This document shows positions 9,577 through 49,428 of a stretch of DNA of 64,000 nt, in pieces. The DNA is from an uncultured delta proteobacterium. GTDB lineage: Bacteria > Desulfobacterota > Binatia > UBA9968. A program made the position numbers and the translations under genes. Under the pieces are notes generated by a model. It was not told where the DNA came from, made no database searches, and was given only the letters and a program-made list of their open reading frames with translations. The stretch is taken from positions 32,359-96,358 of the forward strand of contig CAVYTU010000010.1 of NCBI GenBank assembly GCA_963771465.1. The letters are read 5' to 3'. Position 1 is the first letter of the stretch; the number at the start of each line of letters is the position of its first letter.

Positions 9577-9819
9577 AACTCGGATTCCGTAGTTGAAATT
9601 GAAGCAGCGAGCGAGGCGCGATCCTTCCGTAGTGAAGACAATGGGCCTGTGCCCCTGAGCAGGCAAGCGCCATCGTTGCCCAGCGAGCAATCCGTAGCCA
9701 TTGGCACGGCATGCCAACCCGGCAAATTGACTTTGCAACCGTAGCGTTGGGTGTCTTCACTACTCCAGGCTCGCACCTCGCTCGGCGCACGCAATTACTT
9801 CGACTGCGGAATCCGGGTT
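9577..9819. repeat. ~243-bp nested-palindromic dispersed repeat (MITE/REPIN-like), intact empty copy
   Basis: Terminal IR AACTCGGATTCCGTAGTTGAAATTG / CAATTACTTCGACTGCGGAATCCGGGTT. Inner IRs GAGCGAGGCGCGATCC / GGCTCGCACCTCGCTC and GTAGTGAAGACA / TGTCTTCACTAC. Homologous to 46498-46578 plus 47892-48051. Confidence 0.9.
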
Positions 9820-31700: not shown

Positions 31701-33114
31701 ACCACGGAGCATGTCATGGAGTCGCAGCGAAATACTGGCGGCAACCGGCGGCGCATTAGCGCGCGCGGGAAACCGACTGCGCTTTGGCGCGGTGGTCACT
31801 GATTCCAGCAAGGTTAAACCGGGAACGGTTTTTGTCGCCCTCAAAGGTGAACGCTTCGATGGCCATCGCTTTGTCGCTGACGCTGTCCGACGCGGTGCGG
31901 CGTGCGTGATCGTGCATCGGAGGTTAGCTCGGGAAAAGCTCGGTAACGCAACGGTGATCAGAGTCGACGACACGCTTGGCGCGTTGGGAGATTTGGCGAA
32001 TTTTCGCCGCCGGCAGTTTGGCCCCAGGGTGTTGGCGATCACCGGTTCAAACGGCAAGACGACGACCAAGGAAATGGTCGCGGCGATTCTCGAAGAAGCT
32101 TCCCTCGAGGGTCGATCGCTACGCGGCAAGATATTGAAGACCGAAGGCAATTTTAACAATCTGGTAGGCTTACCCTTGACGCTTTTGCGCTTGCGTAAAA
32201 AGGACAAGGTCGCGGTGGTCGAACTCGGCACCAATTATCCCGGCGAGATCGAGCGTTTGGCTCGGATCGCGGAGCCGGATTTGGCCATTATTACTTCAGT
32301 TGCCGCCGCCCATCTCGAAGGATTGAACAGTCTCGCCGGCGTGGCGCGGGAAAAGGGCGCGCTCTACCAAAACGTCCGCCGCGGCGGCGCCATCGCGGTG
32401 AATCTCGACGATCCCTGGGTGAAGCGTCTGGGCGCGAAGTTCAAAGGCAAGAAATTTACCTATGGCAGACGCGGCCAGGTGCGCGCGCAAGCGCTCGATC
32501 TACACGATGCCAAGGGGGTCGGCTTTGAGCTCCGCGCGGGCGCCCAGCGATGTAAAATTCACCTGCGCTATCTCGGTCAACACAATGTCGCTAACGCGCT
32601 CGGCGCGGCGGCATTGACTCTCGGCGCCGGCGTTAGCCTAACGGCGGTGCGCCGCGGACTCGTCAAAGCCAAACCCTATGCGATGCGCATGCAGATTCAG
32701 CAGTGGCGTGGTGTCGGCGTTATCAACGACGCCTACAACGCCAATCCCGCTTCGATGCAGGCGGCGCTGACGACGCTGGCGGATATTCCCTGCCGCGGCC
32801 AACGCATCGCGGTTCTCGGCGATATGTTCGAGCTCGGCCGGCAGAGCAGCAAGGAACATCGAGCCTTGGGTCGGGCCACGGCGCGGGCGAAAATCGACCG
32901 GCTCTATTTGCTGGGCGCCCAAGCCGGCAAGGTTCGCGCCAGCGCGCTCGGCGCCGGCATGAAGGCGCAGCAAATTTGCATTGGCGCCGATCACAGCGAG
33001 TTGGCGCGCCGCATCGGCGCCACGGTGAAGCGCGGCGACTGGCTCCTGTTTAAAGGCTCACGCGGCATGAAAATGGAAAATGTTCTGAATCAGCTCACAG
33101 GCGGAAAGGCGTAG
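31693..33114 (+). CDS. murF: UDP-MurNAc-pentapeptide synthetase
   Basis: [39 protein letters not shown]. Confidence 0.96.
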
Positions 33115-45191: not shown

Positions 45192-46379
45192 TTACGATTT
45201 TTTCGCGGCGGGCGCGGCCGGCGCTTGCTGTTCGATGACTTTCACTACTTTGCCGGGATAGGCCTGCTTTTCGAATTGTAGCACGAAATATTTCGCCTTC
45301 ACCGGGTCGCCTTTGTTGTCGAATTCGATGGGCCCGGTTACGCCTTTGAACCCTTTTATTTTACGCACAGCAGTGGAAACTTCGGTGCGCGTCGGTTTCT
45401 TGCCGGGATGCGCTTTCAGCCATCCCTCTAGGGCTTTGATGCCGACCAGCGTGGCGTCGTAGCCGTACAAGCCAAACGCTTCGACATCCTTGCCGAAACG
45501 TTGCTTGAATTTTTTCGCGAACGCGGCGGTTTCAGGATACGCATCCGGCGGACCGGCGACGCTGGTGTAGTAACTGCCCACCACCGAGCTGCCGGCGATC
45601 TTGGCCATTTCAGCCGAGTCCAAACCATCGGGTCCCATGAATTTGGCGGTGACACCTTTCTCACGCAATTGTTTTAGCAGCAAGCCGCCTTGATGATAGA
45701 TGCCGCCGAAATAAACCAGCGCCGGATTTTTCGCTTTTAGCGGATTGATCATCGGCGAGAAGTTGGCGCGCTCTTCGGTGCCTTCGTAGCCCAGAACGTT
45801 GATGCCGAGCTTTTTCGCTTCGTTACGGAAGTTGTCGGCGACGCCTTGACCGTAGAGCGTTTTGTCGTGGATGATGTAAACCGATTTGGCTTTCAACTCC
45901 TGCGCCGCGAAGCGCGCGCCCACCGGACCTTGGACATCGTCACGGCCGCACACGCGGTTCACATTCGGATAACCGCGGTCGGTGATTTCGGTCGCGGTAT
46001 TGGCCGGCGAGATCATCGCCAGCATGGCGTCTTTGTAAACTTCCGAGGCCGGCAGAGCGACGCCGGAATTGAAATGACCGACGATCACCAAGACTTCGGG
46101 ATCGGCGACCATGTTGCGCGCGTTGGCGACGCCGACTTCAGGTTTCGCTTGATCGTCTTGCGGCACGAGCACTAAATCGTAGCCCAGCGCCTTAAATGAT
46201 TTGACCGCCTCTTCGACGGCGAGCTGCGCGCCGAGCTTGATATGCTCACCGAGCGCGGCCTGCTCGCCGGAGAGCGGCGCCTGCACGGCGATCTTGATTT
46301 TACCCTGTTGCGCCCACGAGGTGGCAGGCACTAAAGCGACCCATGCCAAGAGGAACGCTAATGACAGTCGTTGTAGCAC
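45192..46379 (-). CDS. Branched-chain amino acid ABC transporter substrate-binding protein (LivK/LivJ-like)
   Basis: PLSG.QA, DDQ, VGHFNSG, RVCGRDD.QG, HDKT.YGQG; GTG start after AGGAG. The ORF-track N-terminal extension runs into the repeat and IS. Confidence 0.92.
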   Translation of the reverse strand: MLQRLSLAFLLAWVALVPATSWAQQGKIKIAVQAPLSGEQAALGEHIKLGAQLAVEEAVKSFKALGYDLVLVPQDDQAKPEVGVANARNMVADPEVLVIVGHFNSGVALPASEVYKDAMLAMISPANTATEITDRGYPNVNRVCGRDDVQGPVGARFAAQELKAKSVYIIHDKTLYGQGVADNFRNEAKKLGINVLGYEGTEERANFSPMINPLKAKNPALVYFGGIYHQGGLLLKQLREKGVTAKFMGPDGLDSAEMAKIAGSSVVGSYYTSVAGPPDAYPETAAFAKKFKQRFGKDVEAFGLYGYDATLVGIKALEGWLKAHPGKKPTRTEVSTAVRKIKGFKGVTGPIEFDNKGDPVKAKYFVLQFEKQAYPGKVVKVIEQQAPAAPAAKKS

Positions 46380-46645
46380 GGCAATTGTTCTCCTTTGCTT
46401 GGAATGCTCTGACGATAACAAATCGACGGCGAGGGCGCCATAGATTCTTACGCTATGTGCGAAGGACGTGCGCCGCACAAGGAATATCCATCGGATTAAC
46501 CCGGATTCCGCCGTTGAAATTGAAACACGAGCGAGGCGCGATCCTTCCGTGGTGAAGACAATGGGTCTGTGCCTCTGATTAATATGAAAGCGATGAAATC
46601 CGCAGCGTCGGTAGATAGACTGACGGCTGGAGGAGGAAATCGCAA

Positions 46646-47742
46646 ATGGAATATATCGCATTGGATGTTCACAAACATTACACCTGGGCACGAGTGGAAA
46701 ACGACCAAGGCCACAAGGTCTAGGAATGTAAATTGGCGCACCGTCGTGGAACGATTAAAAACTTTGCCAAGCAGTGGAGTCCCGGCACCCCGGTGGCAGT
46801 GGAGACAGTGGGCAACTGGTACTGGGTGGTCGATGAGATCGAGGCCGGCAAAGGATCGCCGCAATTGGTCAACGCACGACTGGCCAAGCTGATGATCGGC
46901 AGCGTGAACAAGAGCGACAAGCTCGATGCCAAGGGAATGAATCGTCTGCAGAGGGTAGGCACCCTGCCGACGGTGTGGATAGCGCCGTCTGCGGTTCGCG
47001 ATGCCCGCGAGTTGCCGCGCACCCGCATGGTGCTCAGCAAGCAAGAACCCAATTCAAGAACCGCATTCACGCCACCCTGGAGAAGTACGGGCTTAAGGTC
47101 GAAGGAGTCAGCAACGCGTTTGGTAAGGCAGGGCGACGGATCATCGAAGAGCTTTCCTCCAAGCTGCCGCCGCACACCGAGCAAGCCCTGCGCTTGATGC
47201 TCGACGAACTCGACCCTGTGCAAGCCAATCTCAAAACCATCAAAGGCCAAATGCCACAAGCCTTTGCTCCCCGTGCTGAGACGACTTATTTGCACAGCGA
47301 GCCGGGGGTGGGTGAGATGTTGGCGGTGGTGATCTGGACCGAGATTGGCACCATCGAGCGCTTTGGCCGAGCCGAACAGCTGGCAAGTTACGCAGGGCTG
47401 GTGCCACGGGAGCACTCCAGTGGCGGCAAGGTGCGCTATGGGCGGGTGAGAAAGGACGTGAATCTTTATCTCAAGTGGGCCTTTACCGAGGCGGCCAACA
47501 GCGCCGTGCTCAACCGCGAGCGCTGTGAGTACCGACACGTTGCCCGGCTGTATGAAAACGTCAAAGCCAGACGGGGTCACGGCAAGGCGATTATCGCGGT
47601 AGCGTGCCACCTGGCCGAGGCCGCTTTTTGGATGTTGAAAAAAGGAGAAAACTATCGCGAACCGATGTTGTCCACACAACGCTCAGCGCGGCCTGCTCAT
47701 GGGTCCACTGAGACCCGCCCTCTGATTGCGACAGCGCTGTGA
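46646..47742 (+). pseudogene. IS110 DEDD recombinase/transposase, disrupted
   Basis: GGAGG RBS; MEYIALDVHK, VAVET, KSDKLDA, ASYAGLVP..HSSGG, KAIIAVA..L. In-frame TAG at 46721 and a frameshift near 47045. Confidence 0.9.
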
Positions 47743-47870
47743 AATAATTCTCTGCCGCACAAGACCGAATAGATGAGTCCGATAACATCGGGTTAGAATG
47801 ACGGACGACGGGAATAGGTTTTACTCAGAAACATTCGAGGAGTGCTCGATTCGGGAATTAACAGCCACCT
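47680..47870 (+). ncRNA. Putative bridge/seek RNA of the IS1111-type element
   Basis: Stem CAGCGC/GCGCTG enclosing GCCTGCTCA (reverse complement of right target), a GGGTC/GACCC hairpin and CCTCTGA (left target). ATAGATGA (47769-76) matches the IS right end plus core. Boundaries are approximate. Confidence 0.75.
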
Positions 47871-48284
47871 TGACAAAGCTTTCATAGATGAGCAGGCAAC
47901 CGACATAGCTGCCTAGGAGCAATCCTTGGCAGCTATTAGAGCGGCTTGCCAATCCGGCAAAATGACATTACAACCGCAGCGTTGGGTGTCTTCACGACTC
48001 CAGGATCGCGCCTCACTCGGCGCATGCAATTACTCTAACTGTATCCGGGGTGAGCGGCGTCTTTCGGATCGGGCAATTTTCTCGGCTATCCGCCGCGTAC
48101 GCCGTTAGCGCGGCACGCGCACCTCGCCGAGGCTATCCTTTTCGATACGAACAGATTCGTTCTTCATTAGACTTGCTCCTCTCTCAATTTTGCCTGTGCG
48201 GTTCAGGAATTGAAATATCGGTGGAGAGATCGCTACGTAGACGGCAACTTCTAAGCCGCGTCGAACTCGCGAAAAGATCGGAGA

Positions 48285-49328
48285 TCAGATCGGCGCCTCT
48301 TGAGCAAGCACACTTAAAGTCATTTTCTGCGACTGGCGCAGCAATTGGATATTGCACTTTGCGCCGATGCGCGCGCCGGTGAGCAGGCGGTGCAGATCGT
48401 CGACGCTGCGCACCGGGTTGTCATCCAGCGTGAAGATAACGTCGCCTTCGCGCAGCTCAGCGCGCTCGGCTGGACTGCCGTTTTCTAGCGAAATCACCAG
48501 CACGCCAGTTTCGACTTTGAGTTGCTGCGCGCGGACGATGGCGCGCGGAATCTCGACGGTCTGGCCGCCGAGACCGAGATAAGCGCGGCGAATTCGGCCG
48601 TTCTGAATCAATTGGCCGGCGACGAACTTCGCGGTGTTGATCGCAACCGCGAAACAAATTCCCTGTGCCGGCAGGATGACCGCGGTATTGACGCCGATCA
48701 CTTCACCATTGGAATTGACCAGCGGCCCGCCGGAGTTTCCCGGATTGAGCGCCGCATCGGTTTGAATCACGTTATCGATCAGGCGGCCCGACGAAGAGCG
48801 CAATGAGCGTCCCAGTGCGCTGACCACACCGGCGGTCACGCTGTATTGAAAGCCGTATGGATTGCCGATGGCGATGGCGAGCTGGCCGACGCGAATTGTT
48901 TCGGAATCACCGAAGCGGGCGGCGATCAAACCAGGCGCGGATATGCGAATCACGGCGAGGTCGGTGCTGGGGTCGTCGCCGACGATGCTCGCGCTCAATC
49001 GCCGTCCGTCGCTGAGGGCGACATTTAACTTGTTGGCGTCGTGGACGACGTGGCTGTTGGTCAGGATCAGTCCGTCCGGTGTGAAGATGAATCCCGAACC
49101 GCTGGCGCGCATTTCTCCGGGACCGCTGCTGCGCCGATTCCAACTCGGGTTGGCGATTTTACTGACTTCGATAAATACCACGGACGGGCTAACCGTTTCG
49201 GCGGACTGCACCACGGCCTGCGAGTAGGCGTCGAGAAGCTTGAAATCTCGGTCGGCGATAGTTGGACCTGCCGAGTGTGCGCTGCTGGTCGTATTATTTT
49301 CAACGAGTTTGAGAGCTGGGTAGGACAT
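48285..49328 (-). CDS. HtrA/DegP-like S1C serine protease with single PDZ domain
   Basis: GSGF, TNSHVV, DLAV, QTDAALNPGNSGGPL, PDZ SPAERAELREGD. Confidence 0.93.
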   Translation of the reverse strand: MSYPALKLVENNTTSSAHSAGPTIADRDFKLLDAYSQAVVQSAETVSPSVVFIEVSKIANPSWNRRSSGPGEMRASGSGFIFTPDGLILTNSHVVHDANKLNVALSDGRRLSASIVGDDPSTDLAVIRISAPGLIAARFGDSETIRVGQLAIAIGNPYGFQYSVTAGVVSALGRSLRSSSGRLIDNVIQTDAALNPGNSGGPLVNSNGEVIGVNTAVILPAQGICFAVAINTAKFVAGQLIQNGRIRRAYLGLGGQTVEIPRAIVRAQQLKVETGVLVISLENGSPAERAELREGDVIFTLDDNPVRSVDDLHRLLTGARIGAKCNIQLLRQSQKMTLSVLAQEAPI

Positions 49329-49428
49329 GGCTATTCCTTTCTCGCGCAAAGCTAATCACGGTTGGCGATCTTGTTAAGTACGCACCCGGCGGTGCTATAG
49401 TATCTAGCGGGTAACCTAGGAGATCGGA

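Follow-up and report, generated by a model that had tools for sequence, protein, structure and literature searches.

A decayed IS1111-type insertion sequence from an uncultured soil bacterium, with a predicted guide RNA that matches its insertion site

Results

Organization of the locus

The window studied here is a stretch of 64,000 nucleotides from an uncultured delta proteobacterium (Binatia, UBA9968; assembly GCA_963771465.1, contig CAVYTU010000010.1, forward-strand positions 32,359 to 96,358). We read region 46576-47890 of this window as a decayed insertion sequence (IS) of the IS110 family, IS1111 group, that carries its own RNA spelling the insertion site. We give this reading a probability of about 0.9. 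The features of the element, of the host repeat that it interrupts and of an unoccupied copy of this repeat are collected in Table 1.

At the filled site, the two junctions are GTGCCTC-TGA (46569-46578) and TGA-GCAGGC (47889-47897), and 1,311 bases of element lie between them. Outside the inverted repeats, the terminal extensions measure 7 bp on the left, TG counted, and 2 bp on the right. The non-coding ends are 68 nt before the start codon (ATG at 46646) and 203 nt past the natural stop position. Six full-length copies found in a genome of the same genus (G018), 85-88% identical to the window element, terminate at the same bases. Comparison of the filled and empty sites, together with a second genomic copy at the same repeat position, shows that insertion is site-specific and occurs without duplication beyond the shared core.

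The original prediction, made from the letters of the window, had proposed an IS1111-type element with an empty target in the same window. All the strings on which it was built are found where it had placed them. Pfam and NCBIfam domains, subterminal repeats and a long 3′ non-coding end bear out the IS1111 assignment. The empty target is equally real: site 9649-9664 reads GTGCCCCTGAGCAGGC, and the flanks of the element align with the empty copy at 83-90% identity. The C/T difference of the empty copy had been explained by a U-G wobble. The chemical part of this explanation is correct, a guide U facing a G of the bottom strand.

The target belongs, as had been proposed, to a host repeat family. 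The repeat gives 63 blastn matches in the 6.9-Mb genome, about 20 copies aligning over at least 150 nt, and exact target sites lie inside such copies. It folds as a long imperfect palindrome, and its copies in the window are intergenic. Three further exact and unoccupied occurrences of the 14-nt target GCCTC-TG-AGCAGGC are present in the genome, each inside a repeat copy; 13 sites are found at one mismatch or less, and 0.09 exact sites are expected. A comparison of the repeat with Rfam gave no match, only sub-threshold microRNA and long non-coding RNA hits on its hairpin. The repeat may be a repetitive extragenic palindromic (REP)-like element, a miniature transposon or a structured RNA.

Contigs of public metagenomes contain sequence with at least 90% similarity to 46400-48100. 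Among the 24 runs listed, 13 hold at least half of the sampled words. The runs holding such sequence come from 16 studies of soil, rhizosphere and sediment and include one RNA library, at 0.49 of words. In run X3, a loose end at 46578 continues into the right flank as an empty allele would; this continuation is 11-15 nt long and fits two loci, and it was not counted.

Table 1 Features of the element and of its target in the window
Feature	Position	Strand	Basis or remark
Unoccupied host repeat copy, about 220 nt, palindromic	9577-9799	+	blastn; DNA fold z = -6.1
Empty target GCCCC-TG-AGCAGGC	9651-9664	+	in another host repeat copy
Occupied repeat, left half	46498-46575	+	90% identical to 9577-9658
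TG core, left copy (crossover dinucleotide)	46576-46577	+	sole sequence common to both junctions where the target of relatives has G, C or T next
Insertion sequence body, left end ATTAATATG..., right end ...TTTCATAGA	46578-47888	+	filled versus empty site
TAATAT, -10 half of junction promoter	46580-46585	+	17-nt spacer with one TG between ends
Left subterminal inverted repeat TATGAAAGC	46583-46591	+	reverse complement of 47878-86; kept in relatives
Transposase pseudogene, DEDD/RuvC-like and Transposase_20 domains	46646-47685	+	Pfam matches; intact 346-aa orthologues in G018 and G006
Lesion 1, in-frame TAG stop	46721-46723	+	common to second genomic copy
Lesion 2, 1-nt deletion, frameshift	47043-47044	+	aligned with three intact relatives; metagenome contig has extra G
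Bridge/seek RNA (predicted)	47662-47791	+	closed by long-range helix P1, 47662-72 with 47781-91; covariance model
Target-arm outer stem, 5′ strand	47675-47683	+	within last transposase codons; RNAalifold; 9/9 pairs changed on both sides, 91.6% paired
Lesion 3, lost stop codon, TCA for TAA	47683-47685	+	A at 47684 in contigs of four runs
Short invariant helix CGCG/UGCG	47687-90 with 47727-30	+	RNAalifold
5′ target guide GCCTGCTCA	47691-47699	+	complementary to top strand of core and right flank (TGAGCAGGC); 9/9 with own right junction
Inner hairpin separating target guides	47700-47717	+	U-G closing pair, GGGTC/GACCC (47701-05/47712-16); 4/6 pairs changed on both sides, 95.3% paired
3′ target guide CCCTCTGA	47718-47725	+	CCTCTG = left flank and core, final A = first base of element; match 6/7
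Target-arm outer stem, 3′ strand	47733-47741	+	RNAalifold; pair counts
Putative 5′ donor guide	47742-47752	+	includes AATAATT (47743-49); partial match to reverse complement of left end, judged by eye
Donor-loop inner hairpin	47753-47767	+	broken by GG deletion after 47765; helix 5, 96.2% paired in relatives
3′ donor guide AATAGATGAG	47768-47777	+	right end, core and next base
TTGACA, -35 half of junction promoter	47870-47875	+	forms solely when ends join in circle
Right subterminal inverted repeat GCTTTCATA	47878-47886	+	kept in relatives
TG core, right copy	47889-47890	+	junction comparison with relatives
Occupied repeat, right half	47891-48034	+	83% identical to 9656-9799

The transposase and its relatives

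The C-terminal frame of the pseudogene matches PF02371 (Transposase_20) with 77.1 bits, and the GL-P----S(t)G motif is present as GLVPREHSSG in the window translation. An intact orthologue from G018, encoded by a copy 88% identical to the window element, reaches 233.6 bits with the NCBIfam equivalog NF033542, “IS110 family RNA-guided transposase” (cut-off 140). With the same intact protein as query, the only matches in the PDB are the transposases of IS621 and ISCro4. The match to IS621 (PDB 8wt6) is confined to the C-terminal domain (residues 192-337, E = 3.6e-12).

The family is very large: of the 7,999 candidates scored, at least 6,246 proteins reach E <= 1e-20. Those of the six G018 copies that were examined encode an intact, two-domain protein of 346 residues. 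All members of the subfamily found here come from soil and sediment metagenome bins.

Target guides change with the insertion site

Two strings in the 3′ non-coding end correspond to the two sides of the insertion site. GCCTGCTCA (47691-99) is the exact reverse complement of TGAGCAGGC, and CCTCTGA (47719-25) is the left flank followed by TGA. The original prediction had taken them for the guides of a target-binding loop. Their match to the insertion site, 9/9 on the right and 6/7 on the left, stands, and it is reinforced by relatives of the element, in which guides and flanks covary.

Relatives were collected by a scan of one genome per species, which returned 52 loci in bins labelled as delta proteobacterium, Binatia, Nitrospirota, Chloroflexota, Aminicenantes, Armatimonadota, Spirochaetia and others. 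The guide parser was given 42 of these loci and the window; 36 were parsed, 32 of them with both flanks. Ten loci with the gene or the 3′ end cut off were left out (L033, L034, L054, L058, L061, L062, L063, L066, L067 and L069). Three were not parsed by the regular expression (L038, L046, L047), and four were dropped for missing ends or a wrong parse (L039, L040, L044, L056). Guide-flank scoring thus excludes these last seven loci; the structure alignment does include L038, L040, L046, L047 and L056. The conclusions do not depend on genomes G005 and G035, which are marked as unpublished.

The G018 copies carry the guides GCGGCTCA and ATTCTGA and sit in GTCATTC-TG-AGCCGC. A copy 72% identical to the window element, in genome G006, carries GGCATCCA and AACCTGA and sits in GAACC-TG-GATGCC. 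Despite these different guides, the hairpin and stems around them are unchanged between the three copies. When the RNA of the window is compared with that of G018, differences occupy 6 of the 11 guide positions and 14 of the 124 others (Fisher p = 0.0015). For the 32 loci that retain both flanks, agreement between the 3′ guide and its own left flank averages 5.9/7 positions, versus 4.1 for the flanks of other loci; the corresponding values for the 5′ guide and the right flank are 6.4/9 and 4.4. When each of the 24 distinct guide pairs is represented once, the observed sums are attained in none of 10,000 flank permutations. At least ten clearly different targets are represented among the relatives. 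Hence the covariation of guide and target in homologous copies, which had been put forward as a check of the prediction, is observed.

We also considered that the matches between the 3′ end and the flanks may be due to chance, or be a by-product of copied flanking repeat sequence. The host repeat is indeed common in the genome, and the fold of the window sequence alone is unremarkable. Against this explanation, relatives inserted in other flanks carry other guides that match them, as the permutations show. The similarity between element and repeat is limited to the 9- and 7-nt guides, and alignments of the relatives end 2 nt outside the element. In addition, TGAGCAGGC occurs four times in the window, at the empty site, in the guide (minus strand), at the right junction and as a stray copy at 48380, for a shuffle mean of 0.57 (0 of 100 shuffles reach 4), and its excess is due solely to the explained sites. 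We give this explanation practically no weight.

The stray copy of TGAGCAGGC (48380-48388) lies within a trypsin-like/PDZ protease gene (48288-49349, minus strand). Its left side, GCCGG-TG, does not fit the 3′ guide, and this copy is probably due to chance.

Some finer variation was seen among the relatives. G018 holds two sub-lineages, with proteins 88% identical, that have different guide pairs and targets. One (L023, L024, L035, L042) is found in GTCATGC-TG-AGCAA.GCGAAGCATC and the other (L018-L022, L025) in GTCATTC-TG-AGCCGCAGGCGAAGAATC. Each of these targets looks like a member of a host family of short palindromic repeats. A single left-flank base separates L052 from L053 (AAATTG and AAGTTG), and this difference is mirrored in their guides.

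A conserved RNA fold around the guides

Left unprompted on a MAFFT alignment of 32 relatives, RNAalifold proposed the outer stem of the target arm, the CGCG/UGCG helix and the inner hairpin (47700-05/47712-17). In the resulting structure, the two target guides face each other on opposite sides of a large internal loop. The donor-loop hairpin and the long-range helix P1 did not come out of RNAalifold on this alignment; both were proposed separately and then evaluated by pair counts. P1 shows changes on both sides in 8 of its 11 pairs. A duplex search had pointed to this helix, with a mean z of just -1.4 versus shuffles, which is weak by itself.

Taken as a whole, the structure contains 35 pairs, 23 of which show changes on both sides. 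In the alignment, 89.8% of the cells are paired; sliding the 3′ partners by 1-3 columns lowers this to 34-43%. Covariation scores 0.418 versus about 0.09, and none of 500 shuffles attains the observed values. Both outer helices begin inside the last transposase codons, and the stop codon falls within the target loop. Together with the guide-flank covariation, these data support the proposal that the 3′ end encodes a bridge/seek RNA.

The stem CAGCGC (47684-89)/GCGCTG (47734-39), by which the original prediction had closed the target arm, stands only in part. Its pairing is possible in the window copy, and this solely through the mutation of the TAA stop codon to TCA. The relatives conserve the pairing of 47675-83 with 47733-41 instead. 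A local hairpin at CCGATAACATCGG, closed outward by TCGTCC/GGACGA, was also considered. It was rejected in favour of the pairing with the upstream CCGATGTTGTC; the pair counts favouring this long-range helix over the local hairpin cover the long-range helix alone.

A covariance model built here (R1, 137 positions) gives 114.9 bits to window 47660-47794. Across the genome of the window it finds the two copies of the element and nothing else. Across the genomes of 61 relatives, it retrieves copies linked to elements and two weak fragments, in genomes G025 and G032. The G025 fragment (L009/L074, C46:223-279) is an isolated piece of about 55 nt that corresponds to the target-loop arm only (32.3 bits, E = 1.1e-4) and lies beside an unrelated gene; it is probably all that is left of a lost element.

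These structural data also bear on the possibility that the guide-like strings are DNA sites, that is, an internal split copy of the target, comparable to an attachment site and read by the protein as double-stranded DNA. The strings are seen as DNA only, as such a model would have it. Yet the two halves are oppositely oriented and split by a hairpin with co-varying pairs. Both are enclosed by two helices rich in compensatory changes, as produced by selection on a folded single strand. Moreover, RNA guidance has been shown experimentally in the family of this protein (Siddiquee et al. 2024, PMC11187229). A DNA site therefore appears very improbable to us, and we retain a folded guide RNA as the better description of the 3′ end.

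Core, donor guides and junction promoter

The original prediction had suggested a 3-nt TGA core. In relatives with G, C or T after TG in the target (the clade of the G006 copy, the clade inserted in GTCAT-TG-CGAGG, and others), the two junctions share TG only. The crossover core is therefore the 2-nt TG, and the element itself begins with the A. The window gives the appearance of TGA because the bases of element, target and guide are all A at this position. One clade shares CG at both junctions. Two variations of the ends were noted besides. In L049, the left junction has TA, versus TG in the right junction and in the guide, so that either the junction mutated later or insertion took place in spite of a mismatched core. 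In three loci from Aminicenantes bins (L052, L053, L060), the left end begins with G and not A, and the 3′ target guide ends with G too.

Thirteen loci in which element and target differ at the base after the core are informative as to what the guides read there. In 13/13, the 3′ target guide ends with the base with which the element begins. The base after the core in the 3′ donor guide is that of the target in nine and that of the element in four. By analogy, the bases beside the core would match the opposite partner, as do the handshake guides of IS621, whose pairing with the non-cognate partner helps strand exchange to proceed and biases the reaction towards insertion (PMC11208158, PMC13626964). 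We regard this pattern as a lead rather than a proof, because the 13 loci fall into about five clades. Passages of three papers that mention both handshake guides and IS1111 contain no description of such bases in IS1111 elements.

The 3′ donor guide is the clearer of the two donor guides. In the window, ATAGATGA (47769-76) is the right end followed by TGA. In 26 of 26 relatives, this guide corresponds to the last four bases of the right end and the core, across five right-end variants (TAGATG, GATATG, GAGATG, GAGACG and TACATG, the CG-core clade included). The 5′ donor guide had been proposed at AATAATT. Its position, just before the second hairpin, is right; its match to the left end is weak.

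Joining the two ends through one TG assembles a candidate promoter from the two halves listed in Table 1. A promoter with at least 9/12 matches is found across the joined ends in 23 of the 26 loci. Junction promoters are known for the family (PMC13626964, PMC13604230), and a paper on the Pjunc promoter of ISEc11 appears in the reference list of a cited article.

Decay of the window copy

The window copy has lost the ability to move by itself. The original prediction had counted two lesions. Comparison with three intact relatives gives four, one of which breaks the RNA itself. This fourth lesion, a GG deletion after 47765, costs the donor-loop hairpin two of its pairs; contigs of two runs retain GG. 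In addition, the outer stem of the window copy contains an A-C mismatch. The intact state is seen in metagenome contigs of at least 90% similarity, which have G following 47043, GG following 47765, an A at 47684 and a T at 47737. Thus, three of the lesions and the stem mismatch are defects of this copy and not of the lineage.

The only other copy in the genome (C15:1048748-1049397, minus strand; L002-L004) occupies the equivalent position in a different copy of the repeat. Of the element it retains positions 1-231, followed by 846-1161 in inverted orientation and by 1211-1316, and it has the in-frame TAG. The inversion joint is also present in a contig of run X15. An RNA-guided origin of this inversion was discarded, since the breakpoints share a 1-nt overlap and lie off the TG core (judged by eye). 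The TAG common to two repeat copies suggests that a defective copy moved in trans, or that gene conversion took place.

Accordingly, the window copy might be a non-autonomous passenger, mobile when an intact relative supplies the transposase, and perhaps the RNA, in trans. Both copies have the same TAG, yet their repeat flanks are only 87-88% alike, which in this scenario means that a stop-carrying copy reached the second site. Both ends and the target loop are also intact. On the other hand, no related transposase gene other than those of the window and C15 copies is found in the 99%-complete genome. In the window copy the donor-loop hairpin is disrupted, in the second copy part of the interior has been inverted and part lost, and gene conversion could also have spread the TAG. 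We consider a passenger improbable and keep to the reading of a decayed element.

Discussion

Proposed mechanism

Intact elements of the family excise as a circle. In the circle, the right end, one TG and the left end form the sequence of a sigma-70 promoter, TTGACA-17-TAATAT, which would drive the transposase gene and, on the same strand, an RNA of about 130 nt. This RNA would begin in the last codons of the gene and occupy the 3′ non-coding end. As the covariation indicates, it would fold into a helix-closed junction. In one arm, a large internal loop would present the 5′ guide to the top strand (TG and right flank) and the 3′ guide to the bottom strand (left flank and TG). In the remaining part of the junction, two donor guides would surround the second small hairpin, the 3′ one reading the right end and TG and the 5′ one reading the left end loosely. 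The RNA-bound DEDD recombinase would then join the circle junction to the target and exchange strands at TG, as known from IS621 and ISEc11. During this step, the base after TG would fit the element in the 3′ guide of the target loop and mostly the target in that of the donor loop, in the manner of a handshake. The guides of this lineage appear to be set to GCCTC-TG-AGCAGGC, in the middle of the palindromic host repeat of about 220 nt.

Several observations weigh against this reading, or restrict it. As regards the RNA, folding the 3′ end alone (47670-47891) reveals no unusual stability (z = +1.45), and the minimum-energy fold contains the inner hairpin only. Because of this unremarkable fold, the structure is shown by the alignment of relatives and not by the single sequence. 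Rfam 15 gives no relevant match in 46300-48200 at E up to 10, which tells only that no curated model fits this RNA. A promoter scan of the linear copy finds 0 promoter-like sites. Contigs from two RNA libraries span 47630-47846; DNA carry-over is possible, these contigs have neither ends nor strand, and stretches left uncovered in the RNA libraries carry no meaning. Production of an RNA from the element is a prediction from sequence.

As regards the guides, the fifth base of the 3′ target guide is mostly unmatched, 25 of 32 loci scoring 6/7. The 5′ guide matches poorly at some insertions (5/9 in L019 and L028, 4/9 in L055). The 5′ donor guide carries a conserved mismatch and, judged by eye, ignores the ATTAAT/ATTATT difference among close relatives. 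The guide-flank counts overstate the number of independent events because the relatives are kin. As regards the protein, the N-terminal part of the window gene, with the stop read as X, scores 26.8 bits with PF01548 (DEDD_Tnp_IS110), slightly under the cut-off of 29; the intact orthologues score 49.6 (G018) and 39.7 bits (G006).

Comparison with known systems

The comparison relies on excerpts of the cited papers. Siddiquee et al. (2024, PMC11187229) describe IS1111-type elements’ non-coding region as located downstream of the gene, with the top-strand match 5′ of the bottom-strand match and both overlapping in the target. Durrant et al. (2024, PMC11208160) predict bridge RNAs in the right end of 93.0% of the IS1111 elements of ISfinder. 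The element is real and was correctly read in its main lines by the original prediction, with a mechanism that is already known. Both RNA guidance and the location of the RNA at the right end of IS1111 elements were published in 2024, and the element brings nothing new in principle.

The closest functional parallels are the IS1111 elements with a seekRNA (ISEc11, ISPa11, ISKpn4 and ISPst6; PMC11187229), which are only distant relatives in sequence. They share with the window element a DEDD transposase of 330-350 residues with the GL-P----S(t)G motif, subterminal inverted repeats, a long downstream non-coding region and the absence of added duplication. The order and overlap of the guides and the insertion into repeated host sequence are also alike. 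The inverted repeat of the window element, 9 bp perfect (11/13), is at the short end compared with 11-13 bp in these elements. Its terminal extensions of 7 and 2 bp compare with 7 and 3, or 6 and 3, in the IS1111 literature. Its structured RNA of about 130 nt lies between the short (82-96 nt) and the long (148-172 nt) seekRNA species (PMC13604230). Unlike in the seekRNA elements, the two outer helices begin inside the coding sequence. Location and logic are the same as for the predicted right-end bridge RNAs of IS1111 (PMC11208160), and the window element is as expected from them.

IS621 (Durrant et al. 2024, PMC11208160; Hiraizumi et al. 2024, PMC11208158) also has a guide pair for the target and one for the joined ends, the 5′ member of the latter being putative in the window element, a 2-nt core, handshake guides, a circle-junction promoter and insertion into repetitive palindromic host sequences. 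It differs by an RNA located in the left end upstream of the gene, by a reversed order of the guides and by a CT core. In IS621, two stem-loops follow each other in a row, whereas in the window element the target arm is nested inside the helix by which the donor loop is closed as well. The window element also has a much weaker 5′ donor guide than IS621.

Three features may be new for the IS1111 group: a nested, helix-closed architecture that extends into the coding end, bases of the handshake type, and a natural series of close relatives with changed targets. One can go further and propose that the helices overlapping the end of the gene, with the stop codon in the target loop, constitute a switch between protein and guide, and that the close relatives form a natural retargeting series. 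We regard this extended proposal as rather doubtful. If it were true, completion of the transposase by ribosomes and folding of the guide RNA would be mutually exclusive on one transcript, the 5′ strands of the two helices being the last eight or so transposase codons, in an IS1111 subfamily of soil bacteria. The relatives, 72-88% identical and with different guide pairs and host repeat families, would show how such RNAs retarget though excision requires a match to the current flanks. Handshake-type bases would then occur outside the IS110 group.

The value of the locus lies in its being a clean natural example from uncultured soil bacteria, in which the filled site, the empty site and the guide can be read in one window. 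Guides designed from this element should take account of the TG core, of the handshake-like base and of the real stems. The series of relatives and the 137-position covariance model could aid annotation, Rfam 15 having no matching family, and could help to choose compact orthologues for recombination assays.

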